NCBI RefSeq assembly: GCF_035577925.1
Contig: NZ_DATJCY010000077.1
Span: 185 to 64,184 of the forward strand
Direction of reading: 5' to 3'
Length of the DNA: 64,000 nucleotides
Source of the DNA: Gelidibacter sp.
Lineage (GTDB): Bacteria; Bacteroidota; Bacteroidia; Flavobacteriales; Flavobacteriaceae
Below, piece by piece: positions 31,951-37,525 of the stretch (position 1 is its first letter; each line of letters opens with the position of its first letter). Made by a program: the position numbers and the translations under genes. The notes beneath the pieces are model-generated. The model did no database searches and was not told the DNA's origin. It saw only the letters and a program-made list of their open reading frames with translations.

Positions 31951-32040
31951 TGTTTAAAAGTTTTGGTAAAAGTATTCAAAAACTACCGCTTCAATTCTGC
32001 TTTTTGTATATTTTTAACAGCATATATAAAAACACTTTTT

Positions 32041-32592
32041 TTGAAGAATCTTTTCATAAAATATAAATCGGTTATTAAGTTTATTGGGACTTTTTTATTG
32101 GTTTATGCTACATTGAGTTTTATCTACAAATTGTATTTGGATTTTTCCGATGGTTCAACCTATTATCCCGATTATTTTACCAATTTGGTTTCAAAACAAA
32201 CCAATGCCTTTTTGCATACTTTGGGTTATGATTCGCAAATAGTGAATCATCCAGATGAACCTTCAATGAAACTTATAATCAATGGCCAATTTGTTTTACG
32301 ATTAATTGAAGGTTGTAATTCCATAAGTGTTGTCATTTTATTTGGGTCATTTGTAACTGCGTTTGCCGATAGATTCAAACCTACTTTTTTGTATGTTTTG
32401 GCAGGCAGTGTGCTTATTTACATCGTTAATTTAGTGCGACTTGTGATTTTATCATTAGGATTATATCATTATCCGTCGCGACAAGAGGTAATGCATAGCG
32501 TTATTTTTCCATTGATTATCTATGGAATGGTTTTTTTGCTTTGGATATTTTGGATCAAGAGGCTTTCAAATTTAAACCGAACCAATGCGTAG
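32041..32592 (+). CDS. xrtF: Exosortase family protein XrtF
   Basis: IEGCNS (Cys), NLVR (Arg), MHSVIFPLIIYG (His) triad; YYPDYFTNLV motif. Start TTG 32041 preferred over 31963. Confidence 0.9.
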   Translation: MKNLFIKYKSVIKFIGTFLLVYATLSFIYKLYLDFSDGSTYYPDYFTNLVSKQTNAFLHTLGYDSQIVNHPDEPSMKLIINGQFVLRLIEGCNSISVVILFGSFVTAFADRFKPTFLYVLAGSVLIYIVNLVRLVILSLGLYHYPSRQEVMHSVIFPLIIYGMVFLLWIFWIKRLSNLNRTNA

Positions 32593-33022
32593 TATTACTA
32601 AGCTGATAGCGCTTTTAGTACTTTTCGGGTTATTGGTGCTGATACGCGCTTTTGAAAACCAATTATTCTATGATCCTTACCTCAATTTTTTCAAAAATGA
32701 CTATTTGTATATCGATAATCCCCGCCGTGAAGTTTTTAAAGTGACACTTTTTACTGCATTGAGATATTTTCTGAATTCTATAATCTCATTGGGCATTATT
32801 TTTATTTTATTTAAAGATAGAAGTATGATTAAGTTTTCGGCACTTATTTATGTCTTGTCTTTTTTTGTATTATTGACGTTTTTTCTATATTTCGTAATCA
32901 ATCCAAAACAAGAAGATTATTACATTTTCTTTAATATTAGACGTTTTTTGATCCAACCTATTTTGTTATTGCTTTTATTGCCAGCTTTTTATTATGATCA
33001 ATTAAAATTCAAAAAACACTGA
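32585..33022 (+). CDS. Exosortase F system-associated membrane protein
   Basis: IRAFENQLFYDP, RYFLNSIISL, RRFLIQP; overlaps the xrtF stop. Confidence 0.88.
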   Translation: MRSITKLIALLVLFGLLVLIRAFENQLFYDPYLNFFKNDYLYIDNPRREVFKVTLFTALRYFLNSIISLGIIFILFKDRSMIKFSALIYVLSFFVLLTFFLYFVINPKQEDYYIFFNIRRFLIQPILLLLLLPAFYYDQLKFKKH

Positions 33023-33057
33023 TTTTTTATGGTAAGTTGGGATAAAATGTTTTTTTG

Positions 33058-33065
33058 TAATTTTG
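33058..33065 (+). promoter_or_regulatory. sigmaA -7 element TAATTTTG (HYC_CC_PP operon)
   Basis: Consensus match ending 7 bp before ATG 33072. Confidence 0.55.
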
Positions 33066-33071
33066 CATCGA

Positions 33072-33479
33072 ATGAATCAAAAAGGCGTCCATAAAATCCT
33101 TTCCTTGGCAATGGCAATTTTACTGCTCTTGTCCACCAATTCATTTATTTTGGAGAAGCATTTTTGTGGTGATGTTTTGATCGATACATCAATTTTTTCC
33201 AAGGCAAATTCCTGTGATGTTGATGAAACGTCCAAAGCCGCTTTAGAAAAAAAATCATGTTGCGAAAACGAACTTGAGATTGTCAAAGGTCAGGACAAGC
33301 TAAAAAAGGCATCTTCCGAAGATTTGCAAATTGACCAACATTTTTTAATAACTACTTTTATATTTTCCTATATTAATCTTTTTGAAGGATTACCTGAACA
33401 GGTTATTCCTCATAAAGATTATTCTCCACCTACTTTGGTCACCGATATACAGGTTTTGAACCAAGTATTCACCATTTGA
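33072..33479 (+). CDS. HYC_CC_PP family protein
   Basis: N-terminal hydrophobic helix, KHFCGD, KSCCE, C-terminal DYSPP...QVFTI; upstream of a TonB receptor. Confidence 0.85.
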   Translation: MNQKGVHKILSLAMAILLLLSTNSFILEKHFCGDVLIDTSIFSKANSCDVDETSKAALEKKSCCENELEIVKGQDKLKKASSEDLQIDQHFLITTFIFSYINLFEGLPEQVIPHKDYSPPTLVTDIQVLNQVFTI

Positions 33480-33759
33480 TTCTTTAATTCAAAAAAATGT
33501 AGTGGCGCAGTGGCGTTAATTACATTAATAATTGAACCATCAAATAGTTTACAAGAAAATCTTAGAATACAGCAAAAAGTTTCGAACAAATTAATTTAGA
33601 GAAGAACGAAAAGTTTCGATTTTTCACGGATTTATTGAAATTATAATCAAAAGTGTTATTAAAAAACATTTCAAAAATCCTTGATAGATATATTTTTTTA
33701 AAGTGTATTTATTTGCTCGTAAATCTCTTAAGTTTTTAAATATCAATAGAAATTAATAA

Positions 33760-36012
33760 ATGAAAAATATACTTTACAGCTTCATGTTCCTGCCGATATT
33801 TATTTTTTCACAAGAAAAAATAGAAGGAATCATTGTTGAAATAACCGAACAAAAACAAACTTTGCCACTTCCGGGTGCCAATGTATATTGGCTGGATTCC
33901 ACTATTGGTGCAACAACCGATATTGATGGGAAATTCAGTATTCCCTATCAAAAGGAATTTACAAAACTGGTGATTAGTTACGTGGGTTATAAAACAGATA
34001 CCTTAACGGTTATTTCTCCAAAATATATCAAACATTCCTTAAGACCAACCAGTGAGTTGGACGAAATTACCGTTACTTCAAGAAAACAAGCCACTTCAAA
34101 ATCGTATATGCAATCGGCCAATGTGACGTTTATAAGTAGTGACGAATTATTGAAAGCCGCCTGTTGCAATTTGTCCGAAAGTTTTGAAACCAATCCTTCA
34201 ATCGATGTTAATTTTGCAGATGCCGTGACAGGCACACGCCAGATAAAAATGTTGGGATTGACCAGTCCGTATATCTTGATTACTGCTGAAAATATCCCTA
34301 CTATTCGTGGTGCTTCGCAAGCTTACGGACTGAGTTTTACGCCAGGAACTTGGGTAGAAAGTATCCAAATTACCAAAGGTGCCGGAAGTGTGGTCAATGG
34401 TTTTGAAAGTATTGCCGGACAAATTAATACAGAACTCGTGAAACCTACGACAGACAACAGGTTTTTTGTTAATCTTTATGGTGGAAATAATGAACGGTTT
34501 GAAGCCAATGTGCATTTAAACACCAAAGTCAGTGAAAAATGGAGTACAGGATTGTATCTTCATGGTAATACACAGAACAAAAAGCACGATGTTAATGACG
34601 ACGGATTTATGGATATGCCTATTTATGATCAAATAAATTTCATGAACCGCTGGCAATATACCAATCCAGAAAAAGGTTTTGTAAGTTTTATCAATTTCAG
34701 CTATTTGGACGATTCAAAACAAACAGGACAGCTCAATTTTAATCCCGATACGGATAAGTTGACCACCAATGCTTGGGGTAGTGAAATTGATACCAAAAGA
34801 GTTGATGTTTCGGTTAAAACAGGATACGTAAATCCTAATATCCCTTGGCAAAGTATTGGCATTCAAACCGCATTTATCAGTCATAAACAAAACTCCTATT
34901 TTGGATTGAATCTTTATGATATTTTGCATAACAGTTTATATGTTAATGGTATTTATAACACGATTATAAGTGATTCACGACATAAAATCAAAACAGGAAT
35001 TAGCTATACTTATGATCATTATGATGAGTTGGTACTTATTGAAGATTTTGAACGAACCGAGAATTCAATAGGAGCCTTCATGGAATATAATTTTGATAAT
35101 TTGGAAAACCTGAATTTAACGGCAGGTGTTCGTATTGACCATCATAATGTGTTGGGGACTTTTGTGACACCTCGGTTTCATGCGCGTTATACACCTTGGG
35201 AAAAATCTGCTTTTAGGATTTCTTTTGGGCGAGGAAAACGAAGCGCGAATATTTTTGCCGAAAATCAAAATATTTTTGCGACCTCAAGAACTTTGTTAAT
35301 TGATGGTGGTATGCCTTTGGGTAGCTTAAAAGGTGCTTATGGTCTGGACCCTGAAATAGCATGGAATTATGGTATTTCATTTTTACAAGGTTTTAATCTT
35401 TTTGGAAATAAGGGCGACGTGACCTTTGATTATTATAGAACGGATTTCCAAAATCAGATTGTGGTTGATTTTGAAAATCCACGACAGTTAAATTTTTATA
35501 ATCTTGATGGCGATAGTTATGCCAATAGTTTTCAGATAGAATTTAATTATAATGTTTTTCAAGGTTTTGATTTAAGAACGGCGTATAAGTTTTCTGATAT
35601 CAAAACTCAATATAATTCAGGAAAGTTGGAAAAACCATTAACAGCTAAGCATCGTTTATTTGCAAATTTGGCTTATGAAACAAAGATGAAAGATAATCTT
35701 GCACACTGGCGATTTGATGTTACTTATAATTGGTTGGGCAAGCAAAGATTTACATCAACAGCATCAAATCCTAGTGCATACCAATTGCCAGAATATACGC
35801 CAACTGTAGGTACGTTGAATGCTCAGATTACCAAAGTGTTTTCTGAGAAATTTGAAATATATTTAGGTGGAGAAAACATGACCAATGTGAGGCAAAATAA
35901 TCCAATTTTAGGTGCAGACGATCCATTTGGAGCCAATTTTGATACGACATTTGTGTACGGACCAATTTTTGGAAGTATGTATTATGCAGGACTCAGATTT
36001 AAAATAAAATAG
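33760..36012 (+). CDS. TonB-dependent receptor with CC-containing plug
   Basis: Signal peptide, carboxypeptidase-regulatory-like domain (LPGANVYW...TDIDGKFSI), plug LLKAACCNLSESFETN, C-terminal YAGLRFKIK. Confidence 0.93.
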   Translation: MKNILYSFMFLPIFIFSQEKIEGIIVEITEQKQTLPLPGANVYWLDSTIGATTDIDGKFSIPYQKEFTKLVISYVGYKTDTLTVISPKYIKHSLRPTSELDEITVTSRKQATSKSYMQSANVTFISSDELLKAACCNLSESFETNPSIDVNFADAVTGTRQIKMLGLTSPYILITAENIPTIRGASQAYGLSFTPGTWVESIQITKGAGSVVNGFESIAGQINTELVKPTTDNRFFVNLYGGNNERFEANVHLNTKVSEKWSTGLYLHGNTQNKKHDVNDDGFMDMPIYDQINFMNRWQYTNPEKGFVSFINFSYLDDSKQTGQLNFNPDTDKLTTNAWGSEIDTKRVDVSVKTGYVNPNIPWQSIGIQTAFISHKQNSYFGLNLYDILHNSLYVNGIYNTIISDSRHKIKTGISYTYDHYDELVLIEDFERTENSIGAFMEYNFDNLENLNLTAGVRIDHHNVLGTFVTPRFHARYTPWEKSAFRISFGRGKRSANIFAENQNIFATSRTLLIDGGMPLGSLKGAYGLDPEIAWNYGISFLQGFNLFGNKGDVTFDYYRTDFQNQIVVDFENPRQLNFYNLDGDSYANSFQIEFNYNVFQGFDLRTAYKFSDIKTQYNSGKLEKPLTAKHRLFANLAYETKMKDNLAHWRFDVTYNWLGKQRFTSTASNPSAYQLPEYTPTVGTLNAQITKVFSEKFEIYLGGENMTNVRQNNPILGADDPFGANFDTTFVYGPIFGSMYYAGLRFKIK

Positions 36013-36017
36013 CTTAA

Positions 36018-36038
36018 TTTCTGCGAAGGAGGAAATCT
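36018..36038. repeat. Degenerate copy of the TTCCYGCGAAGGCAGGAAT repeat
   Basis: tttctgcgaagg-aggaaatct, just after the receptor stop codon. Confidence 0.5.
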
Positions 36039-36177
36039 AATTAACAAGAACACAATAGTACCCGCCAGAAACACGCTAATATTTTTTACAATACATTAGT
36101 GTATTCGTGGCAAAAAAACAAAAACTATCAATTACTAACAGATTCCTTCCTTTGAAGGAATGAAAAAGCAAAGCATC

Positions 36178-36540
36178 ATGAAAAAATTAATTTTTGTATT
36201 AACATTATTACTTGGAACCGTAACTTTTGCACAGAATAAAAATGCCAAAGCTACGATAGAAGTGGACGGCGTGTGCAATATGTGCAAGGAGCGTATTGAA
36301 AAAGCGGCCATAAAAGCCAAAGGTGTCAAAATTGCCAATTGGGACGTCAATACCCATGAGTTACAATTGATTTTTGACGAACGTAAAACCAGTTTGAAAG
36401 CCATCCAACAAAGTATAGCCCAAGCTGGTCACGACACCAAAGAAATTAGGGCTACTGATGAGGCATACTTGAGTTTGCATACCTGTTGTCTATACAGAGA
36501 TGATGCGGTGAGAGAAGATCATAAAGACAATAAGCAATAA
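36178..36540 (+). CDS. Secreted heavy-metal-associated (HMA) domain protein
   Basis: Signal peptide MKKLIFVLTLLLGTVTFA; GVCNMCKERIE (CxxC); C-terminal LHTCCLYR. Start 36178 preferred over 36160. Confidence 0.9.
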   Translation: MKKLIFVLTLLLGTVTFAQNKNAKATIEVDGVCNMCKERIEKAAIKAKGVKIANWDVNTHELQLIFDERKTSLKAIQQSIAQAGHDTKEIRATDEAYLSLHTCCLYRDDAVREDHKDNKQ

Positions 36541-36585: not shown

Positions 36586-36625
36586 AAAAGAGCCGGATAG
36601 TTTTGGTGTCCGGCTTTTATTTTTT
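36586..36625. terminator. Bidirectional intrinsic terminator between HMA gene and chaN-like gene
   Basis: aaaagagccgga-tagttttggtg-tccggcttttattttt. Confidence 0.75.
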
Positions 36626-36640
36626 GTAAGATTTTTTAAA

Positions 36641-37525
36641 TTATCCTTTTGTCATCGTCATGCTGTCCGCCACTACAATAATGTAGTTAGCTATCTCGGA
36701 TTTGTCTTCTTTACTCATCTCATCCCATTCCGATTGCATAAGTGTAGTAATGGATTTGATTTTCAATCCAGGTTGTATTTTGTTAATCCACCAAATAATG
36801 CCTTGGTTGTAGTTAGAGTGGTAAGAGCCTTCAAAATGAAATAGAAAATCTCCAGGATTAAAATTTTTAAGAGAAAAATGCGCCATGGTAGCATCTTTTG
36901 AAGCCTGTGAAAGTTGGATGTTTAACATATTATCAGGAATGTGGCCACCCATTTTATCGGCCATTTCAGCATAAGCTTTAACAGTTGGGTCGAATAGGGC
37001 TTCTAAATCTGGTCCAATCATGGCAAGGGCTTCCGGACTTAATTCTTTTAAAGCATCCATTCCTTTTTTATACAACATTGAAGCATAGCGTCGGGGAATA
37101 TTAGTAGCAATAAAACGTAAGTTGTGGTCTTTGGCAAAATTGAGCAACGGTTTGTAATCGGTTTTGTAATTGCTCCATAATTGCGTGATTTCAGGAAGCA
37201 TTTTATCTTCAGGATAAAAGTCGTTCAGATATTCGTCCAAAACCAATTGGTTACCGTTTTCAAACATTTCAGCACCAAAAAACAGTTTTTCTCCTTTAAT
37301 ATCAAAAAAACTTTTGCTCATTTCCAATTGAAGCCAATGCGAAATAGGATTATTATGATATTCACCAAAAAACACCATGTCGCTGTCGGCCAAATCCTTG
37401 ATCATCTTTTCATAATCTGCGACTTTTCCATTGTTTTTAAAAAGTTGGTAAGCAGGTTTACTTTGGGAAGTTGCTACCGTTGTAAAAGCTAAAATAACGA
37501 ATGCGATAAGTACTAATTGTTTCAT
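36641..37525 (-). CDS. ChaN-family (EreA-like/Tiki fold) iron-regulated protein
   Basis: Signal peptide; VFFGEYHNNPISHWLQ, GAEMFE, ATNIPRRYA, KDATMA, GSYHS. Confidence 0.8.
   Translation of the reverse strand: MKQLVLIAFVILAFTTVATSQSKPAYQLFKNNGKVADYEKMIKDLADSDMVFFGEYHNNPISHWLQLEMSKSFFDIKGEKLFFGAEMFENGNQLVLDEYLNDFYPEDKMLPEITQLWSNYKTDYKPLLNFAKDHNLRFIATNIPRRYASMLYKKGMDALKELSPEALAMIGPDLEALFDPTVKAYAEMADKMGGHIPDNMLNIQLSQASKDATMAHFSLKNFNPGDFLFHFEGSYHSNYNQGIIWWINKIQPGLKIKSITTLMQSEWDEMSKEDKSEIANYIIVVADSMTMTKG

Follow-up and report, generated by a model that had tools for sequence, protein, structure and literature searches.

HYC_CC_PP, a putative exported leader open reading frame ahead of metal-transport genes in Bacteroidota

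The region studied here comprises positions 33058-36540 on the + strand of a 64,000-nucleotide (nt) stretch of Gelidibacter sp. DNA (the window), where a small open reading frame (ORF) of the HYC_CC_PP family precedes the genes of a TonB-dependent receptor and a secreted HMA-domain protein. A preliminary description, made from the sequence alone, had proposed that this ORF is a metal-sensing leader whose ribosome stalls at a proline pair and thereby gates the uptake genes that follow. Its elements were checked on the window, and the promoter box, the 135-amino-acid (aa) ORF with its HFC, CC and DYSPP motifs, the 280-bp spacer, the AACCN receptor, the HMA protein and the terminator were all found where it had placed them. 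The features of the locus are as follows.

33058-33065, + strand: -7 promoter box TAATTTTG of the Bacteroidota type; the start codon comes 6 nt further on, with ATG at 33072
33072-33479, + strand: HYC_CC_PP ORF, 135 aa, matching NF047658; putative signal peptide at about aa 1-25, C48, moderately hydrophobic helix at about aa 87-105, SPP at aa 118-120, conserved 15-aa tail
33159-33167, + strand: HFC motif, aa 30-32 of the ORF
33258-33263, + strand: CC motif, aa 63-64 of the ORF
33417-33431, + strand: DYSPP motif, aa 116-120 of the ORF
33426-33431, + strand: codons of Pro119-Pro120, the stall site put forward in the preliminary description
33432-33479, + strand: C-terminal tail TLVTDIQVLNQVFTI and TGA stop, the latter at 33477-33479
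33474-33545, + strand: predicted three-tier RNA hairpin, starting in the last codon and spanning the stop
33480-33759, + strand: AT-rich spacer, 280 nt
33760-36012, + strand: TonB-dependent receptor, 750 aa, with CarbopepD_reg_2, plug and barrel domains (PF13715, PF07715, PF00593)
34156-34170, + strand: receptor plug motif KAACCNLSESFETN; AACCN is aa 133-137
36160-36540, + strand: secreted HMA-domain protein, 126 aa (PF00403)
36274-36285, + strand: CNMC motif of the HMA protein, aa 39-42
36478-36489, + strand: HTCC motif of the HMA protein, within HTCCLYR at 36478-36498
36588-36618, + strand: terminator-like hairpin of 12 pairs with a T-run behind it; it separates the HMA gene from the convergent ChaN gene

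The window ORF was matched by the NCBIfam model NF047658 (HYC_CC_PP) with 116.5 bits (E-value 1.1e-33) over profile positions 1-130 of 131, the curated cut-off being 28 bits, and the protein has all three motifs after which the family is named (H-[YF]-C, CC and PP), here as HFC, CC and PP at aa 119-120. Of 401 Bacteroidota genomes sampled, 116 (~29%) contained members by the same model, often in 2-5 copies. When 1.84 billion representative proteins were searched with a profile, 2598 clusters (50% identity) were returned at E ≤ 0.001, and among the 150 matches listed of these the members were mostly 120-150 aa long. The layout was constant over 192 unique members: a signal peptide, H-[YF]-C, one Cys and CC are followed by a variable stretch with a moderately hydrophobic helix, [SA]-P-P and a tail ending in [FY]-x-I. 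The single Cys between H-[YF]-C and CC, which is C48 in the window protein, forms part of CxxCGM in many distant lineages; the window protein has HFC, C48 and CC without the CxxC. In a diverse alignment (A2), C32, C63, C64 and P119 were invariant and P120 was near-invariant. The N-terminal segment is strongly hydrophobic, with a peak at about aa 11-21 in a 15-residue window profile, thus sharing the export-signal feature of the CruR-CutF class discussed below, and sites resembling those of signal peptidase I (for example STGA|T) were seen in distant members. The structure was predicted with AlphaFold2. A shallow alignment of 21 close sequences gave a predicted local distance difference test (pLDDT) value of 50, and 30 diverse sequences gave 72. 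The latter model shows a small three-stranded sheet (25-41 and 64-71) and a helix at 89-103, with HFC and CC on neighboring strands, while the C-terminal 30 aa have low confidence and are not packed against the modeled domain. Neither Foldseek nor a PDB sequence search returned a relative. No paper naming HYC_CC_PP was found in the literature searched, and a paper on the Bizionia copper genome does not mention the locus.

The genomic context was analyzed in two samples, 80 Flavobacteriaceae loci and 85 family genes from 80 further loci across the phylum. Over the 80 Flavobacteriaceae loci the gene order exosortase XrtF, its partner, HYC_CC_PP, a variable part, receptor and HMA gene was kept. 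The variable part consisted of nothing but a gap of 73-108 nt in 10 loci and of 131-500 nt in 17 loci, the latter being the type of the window. In 44 loci a 240-aa HMA-MauE fusion lay between HYC_CC_PP and the receptor, and in 7 loci this place was taken by a P1B-type ATPase (CopA, with CPC, YN and MxxSS motifs) or by a Cu/Zn-efflux-like permease together with HMA-MauE. The fusion joins an HMA domain to a MauE-like membrane domain (e.g., locus L007, 6477-7205) and is without counterpart in the window. In the Flavobacteriaceae relatives the genes after HYC_CC_PP overlap or abut in an operon-like manner. Downstream of the HMA gene of the window, GroEL and ChaN genes lie on the opposite strand; the ChaN / Cofac_haem_bdg family gene (36641-37525, - strand) is convergent with the HMA gene, and only some relatives have it.

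The 5′ position was also kept in the diverse sample, gene-order conservation being one of the checks named in the preliminary description. The next gene shared the strand of HYC_CC_PP in 82 of the 85 cases, at a distance of less than 1 kb (280 nt in the window), and was nearly always metal-related; HYC_CC_PP was never last or alone. The next genes were CusA/CzcA pumps (26), small HMA-like proteins (18), AACCN receptors (12), HMBD (6) and DUF3347 proteins (5), the remainder being MbnP, OEP and others, so that at least eight neighbor types occur overall. HYC_CC_PP thus precedes efflux pumps as well as uptake genes, and the idea of a gate dedicated to uptake was not upheld. A second copy in the same genome (contig C252, 1477-1899) lies 143 nt before a CusA/CzcA pump; its neighbors on this contig (1-3395) are a fragment of an ISAon1/ISL3 transposase and a nucleotidyltransferase of the ANT(6)-like type, which scored 279.7 bits and thus fell under the 420-bit cut-off. 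In one genome group (several of the loci L148-L168) HYC_CC_PP is preceded on its strand, at a distance of 15-178 nt, by a Porin_10 gene (in one locus the two overlap by 11 nt) and is followed by HMA-like and thioredoxin-like genes. AraC-type genes are nearby in a few loci. Taken together, the neighbors point to copper-type metals.

A promoter box of its own, abutting the start codon, had been assigned to HYC_CC_PP, and this was borne out by the relatives. A TAnnTTTG box ending 1-8 nt before the in-frame start was present in 97 of 181 family genes (68 of 119 in Flavobacteriaceae and 29 of 62 in others), as compared to 19 of 1243 other genes at the same loci (1.5%), which makes this arrangement nearly unique to HYC_CC_PP. 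The window holds 99 matches to TAnnTTTG where 98.6 are expected; a single match is therefore meaningless alone, and its meaning comes from the conserved position in relatives. Bacteroidota promoters have an established -33/-7 geometry, and a box abutting the start codon in this geometry implies that transcription starts at or beside the start codon. In the window, the start is predicted at about position 33070, which would yield a near-leaderless mRNA. Among 149 gaps between HYC_CC_PP and the next same-strand gene, only 3 hold a -7 box, with ~12 expected. The window spacer (33480-33759) likewise has no TAnnTTTG on the + strand, as described before, so that no such promoter for the receptor was found in it. 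The box at the ORF combined with the boxless gaps indicates that HYC_CC_PP heads the transcription unit and that the next gene usually lacks a canonical promoter of its own.

The C-terminal part of the protein is held at fixed distances. PP follows CC by 53-54 aa in 142 of 182 members and is itself followed by 15-16 residues in 137 of 182; the distance from PP to the stop had been named as a check in the preliminary description, and the fixed CC-to-PP spacing, together with the signal peptide and the Cys/His motifs, supports its reading. The tail after PP is conserved as a peptide, with codons that vary synonymously. The stop codon is TGA, usually in the context TGAT, in 78 of 80 orthologs, whereas the neighboring orthologous genes end in TGA in 3-11 of 75-78 cases each and use TAA as their stop. 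TGA was also found in 10 of 11 paralogs and, in distant Bacteroidota, in 45% of the genes vs. 23% in the background. By this comparison, the last ~25 residues, the CC-to-PP spacing and the TGA stop are under constraint. Read-through past the TGA was considered and dismissed, as by eye the open frame beyond the stop ranges from 2 to ~39 codons.

The RNA between HYC_CC_PP and the next gene is predicted to be structured. HYC gaps of 45-140 nt had a mean folding z-score of -2.76 relative to dinucleotide shuffles, with 62% below -2, and control same-strand gaps had a mean of -1.89 (difference p = 3e-5). Pairing begins at a median of 3 nt past the stop, and a closing helix, which joins the stop-proximal bases to bases no more than 25 nt before the next start, was predicted in 66% of the HYC gaps vs. 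26% of the controls; in relatives with short gaps it ends ~10 nt ahead of the next start codon. Bacteroidota do not rely on Shine-Dalgarno pairing, and such a structure would therefore mask the initiation region rather than a Shine-Dalgarno site. The window hairpin (33474-33545) has a predicted free energy of -20.1 kcal/mol (z -3.0), and in its closing helix AUUUGAU, made up of the last codon, the stop and one more base, pairs with AUCAAAU at 33539-33545. In the closest clade the outer helices are conserved, and the apical helix changes in sequence and stays self-complementary (by eye). The element ATCAAAT occurs in 28 of 112 regions downstream of HYC genes and in 5 of 777 control windows. Pairing with the stop codon was rejected as a general reason for the TGA, because an exact partner was found in only 27 of 108 ATTTGAT loci, no covariation with other stop contexts was seen and the duplex z-scores were weak (mean ~-0.5). 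A ribosome at the stop would open the closing helix, and a ribosome at PP would not reach it. In the window, 214 nt separate the 3′ arm of the helix from the receptor start, which makes local control of the receptor less certain than in the short-gap relatives; coupling to the receptor may be weakened here or act at the level of transcription. The spacer gave no meaningful tblastn match to HMA-MauE, and hence holds no detectable remnant of this gene, and it contains no Rho-type C-rich region (10% C, 12% G, no stretch with C above G). An Rfam scan of 32950-33850 returned only miRNA matches at chance level.

The downstream genes of the window also proved to be parts of a recurrent set. The receptor has plug and barrel domains in addition to PF13715, and its plug carries a twin-Cys site: over 20 partner receptors, with identities as low as 31%, the motif at 34156-34170 is near-invariant and KAACC does not vary. 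No close solved structure was found for a receptor with an AACCN plug. The HMA protein scored 35.3 bits against PF00403 (cut-off 24.8), with CNMC as its CxxC. In other Bacteroidota the CC[LH]YR module is fused N-terminally to AACCN-plug receptors of 850-883 aa (loci L148, L152, L161 and L167), a gene fusion that links the HMA protein to the receptor and indicates that the two work together. From sequence comparison, the leader, the Cys-plug TonB receptor and the HMA protein can be defined as a conserved three-part module. This module is a candidate route for the uptake of copper-type metals in Bacteroidota, and no study of it was found in the literature searched.

Several known systems resemble this arrangement in part. 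In SecM, MifM and VemP, the N-terminus is exported, an arrest segment lies near the stop and the paused ribosome opens a downstream RNA structure. HYC_CC_PP shares with them the exported N-terminus and a conserved C-terminal segment of ~20-25 residues near the stop; there is no sequence similarity, those systems monitor the export machinery and not metal, and arrest in HYC_CC_PP is a proposal. The periplasmic Cu(I)/Ag(I) chaperone CusF is likewise a small secreted protein encoded with a CusA-type pump, and HYC_CC_PP is comparable as a putative metal binder; unlike CusF, however, it has no fold or sequence match to solved structures, also precedes receptors and other genes, and always stands 5′. 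A further parallel is CruR (Bp2923, DUF2946) of Bordetella pertussis, which lies upstream of bfrG/crtA and has an export signal, Cys ligands and a PP motif, the latter as RAPP three residues from the end (PMC9426467). Both are small exported Cys-containing ORFs with a conserved spacing between ligands and PP, first in an operon with a TonB-dependent transporter, and the CruR family also heads varied copper-related operons, including some with MbnP- and AhpC/TSA-type genes. In contrast to CruR, HYC_CC_PP has a leaderless-type promoter, PP 15-16 residues and not 3 before the stop, a conserved tail and no Arg-Ala before PP; the gaps of its relatives are short and structured, and the window spacer is without a C-rich Rho signature. 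In CutF of Rhodobacter capsulatus, an exported nascent chain acts as a periplasmic copper sensor (PMC9973294; bioRxiv 10.1101/2025.02.05.636593). A survey of CutF-like proteins reported many in Bacteroidota, using DUF2946-like seeds and a filter of PP no more than 15 residues from the C-terminus (bioRxiv 10.1101/2025.02.05.636593). CutF and HYC_CC_PP have in common a C-terminal proline motif, a short gap with a stem-loop beside the downstream initiation region, and neighbors that include CusA/CzcA, OEP and TonB-type genes; they differ in the HxC and CC motifs, the conserved tail and the conserved TGA of HYC_CC_PP.

No homology between HYC_CC_PP and the DUF2946 proteins could be detected, and its description as an independent analogue is therefore fair. 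For 21 members there was no Pfam match at E up to 10 in a library without PF26622 (the Pfam entry precomputed for the family), PF11162 matches in the 401 genomes fell at sites other than the HYC genes, and hhalign of HYC_CC_PP against a DUF2946-like set gave a homology probability of 1.4%. The proline motif of HYC_CC_PP is YSPP, NAPP or HSPP and has no Arg, in departure from the RAPP or PP-rich motif of the CruR-CutF class, which lies within a few residues (at most 15) of the stop. The Bacteroidota ORFs that match PF11162, albeit weakly (L191-L200), combine CxxC with an R-[AG]-P-P motif that lies 2-5 residues ahead of the stop. These RAPP/RGPP ORFs stand ahead of genes of ~740-790 aa, one of them in a Flavobacteriaceae genome, and are thus similar to HYC_CC_PP in phylum and in the kind of upstream position; the HYC genes lie elsewhere in the same genomes. 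The separate sites and the low homology probability indicate that the phylum has two separate families side by side, the canonical CruR-like leaders and HYC_CC_PP.

With chances that we judge to be evenly balanced, HYC_CC_PP is a cis-acting leader ORF that encodes a Sec-exported, Cys/His-rich nascent-chain sensor of periplasmic metal, probably copper. Of the readings considered, this one best fits a 5′ position kept before varied partners, a leaderless-type promoter almost private to the gene, structured gaps without promoters, a fixed spacing, a stop codon under constraint and the absence of any known fold. The leader would set the expression of the metal-transport genes that follow, which in the window are the AACCN-plug receptor and its HMA partner. 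Its N-terminal part would be translocated, and the HxC and CC sites, placed on adjacent strands by the structure prediction, could then bind metal. Metal binding would alter the speed of the ribosome through the C-terminal module (IPHKDYSPP and tail) to or from the UGA, and the closing helix would be opened, and the initiation region of the next gene freed, only by a ribosome that has come to the ORF end. Two geometries appear workable. A pause at PP would leave the helix closed and the downstream genes off. If termination at the UGA were slow, with the conserved tail inside the exit tunnel, the helix would stay open and the downstream genes on. A stall at SPP that is relieved by translocation, as originally proposed, is just one of the two.

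The site of the putative pause is where the earlier proposal fared worst. PP is missing in 10 of the 192 members (~5%), one whole paralog group included; in these it is replaced by SP, PS, RP, VP, TP or SV with the remainder kept, and the genes still lie ahead of intact pumps or receptors. The known PP/RAPP arrest leaders carry their motif within a few residues of the stop and have no conserved tail after it. A ribosome at PP would stand ~48 nt before the stop, short of the gap helix. The conserved tail and the constrained TGA are not expected under simple arrest at PP, and a stall specifically at SPP is thus disfavored.

Further observations weigh against a leader role as a whole or against its application to the window. 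The 5′ ends of two metatranscriptome contigs of low depth, at 33050 and 33059, lie upstream of where transcription is predicted to start; the ORF's nearly leaderless character is backed by the conserved box position in relatives, and these contigs count weakly against a strictly leaderless start. The contigs do not span the 280-nt spacer. This spacer is a derived state, as relatives have HMA-MauE, CopA or a short gap at this place. Pairing between the stop region and a downstream partner is clear in only about one quarter of the loci, and the folding scores may be too high because the gaps are T-rich at the 5′ end and A-rich at the 3′ end. Some genomes have a close same-strand gene upstream (Porin_10, P1B-ATPase). 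A pLDDT of 72 and a small beta-sheet would be equally expected of a stable protein. Finally, many loci are related to one another and the counts given here are not independent. For the metal-sensing arrest leader as first proposed, the 5′ position, promoter, boxless gaps and spacing thus give support, and the stall at SPP, the restriction to uptake genes and a clear local link to the receptor were weakened or not supported.

A serious rival, though in our judgment less likely than not, is that HYC_CC_PP is instead an ordinary trans-acting metal-binding protein of the periplasm or membrane, which in the manner of CusF passes copper-type metal to or from the adjacently encoded transporters and whose 5′ place simply reflects operon order. 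Such a protein would account for the signal peptide, the invariant Cys and His and the predicted sheet in which HxC and CC are neighbors, for selection at the peptide level over the whole length including the post-PP tail, for the dispensability of PP in some members, and for co-encoding with metal machinery that faces the periplasm. However, it would need very different partners (resistance-nodulation-division (RND) pumps, TonB receptors, MbnP, DUF3347 proteins and thioredoxins), and it is hard to reconcile with a position that is consistently 5′ and with a leaderless-type promoter so rare in other genes. It would also leave the constrained TGA and the stop-proximal helix unexplained, has no known fold and ends in 30 aa that are unpacked in the model. 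Regulation without arrest, in which the exported protein signals metal status to another regulator or the ORF acts through plain translational coupling or mRNA stability and the nascent chain senses nothing, seems improbable: the operon-head position, the structured gap and the occasional AraC-type genes close by would fit, but no regulator gene is consistently linked, and plain coupling gives no reason for conserved Cys/His sites, a constant distance from CC to PP or conservation of the C-terminal peptide. That HYC_CC_PP is a substrate or partner of the adjacent XrtF, with an incidental link to metal genes, was rejected as very improbable, since the synteny, seen in the window and in 78 of 80 Flavobacteriaceae loci, is limited to Flavobacteriaceae: XrtF is absent near all other Bacteroidota loci and the paralogs, where the link to receptor/HMA or CusA persists, two Algibacter loci have the receptor and HMA genes but no XrtF, and the tail is not a hydrophobic anchor like that of PEP-CTERM proteins. 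The window genes directly upstream of HYC_CC_PP (31963-33022) are those of XrtF (TIGR04128) and of the membrane protein associated with it (TIGR04127).

The principle of the cis-acting leader was set out earlier for CruR and CutF. In the literature searched, no description was found of the HYC_CC_PP family with its motifs, of its leaderless type of mRNA, of the UGA and the tail behind PP, or of the module of receptor and HMA protein. In its most specific form, which we offer only tentatively and hold to be on the doubtful side, HYC_CC_PP would represent a second, independently evolved and phylum-wide class of exported nascent-chain metal sensors. Here the mRNA would be leaderless, a 25-residue module would pause the ribosome at or beside a UGA read only by release factor 2 (RF2), and not at PP alone, and the stop-codon helix would thereby be held open to turn on the next gene, with the same device placed before uptake (AACCN receptor and HMA) and efflux (CusA, CopA) operons. 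If the leader reading is true, it would assign a role to a large and uncharacterized family, with its 2598 clusters and its presence in ~29% of the sampled Bacteroidota genomes. Post-transcriptional metal sensing by an exported nascent chain would then have arisen at least twice, and the second version would work in a phylum without Shine-Dalgarno initiation and with an arrest module unlike RAPP. As concrete targets for mutation, the system offers its leaderless promoter, its constrained UGA and its conserved tail.

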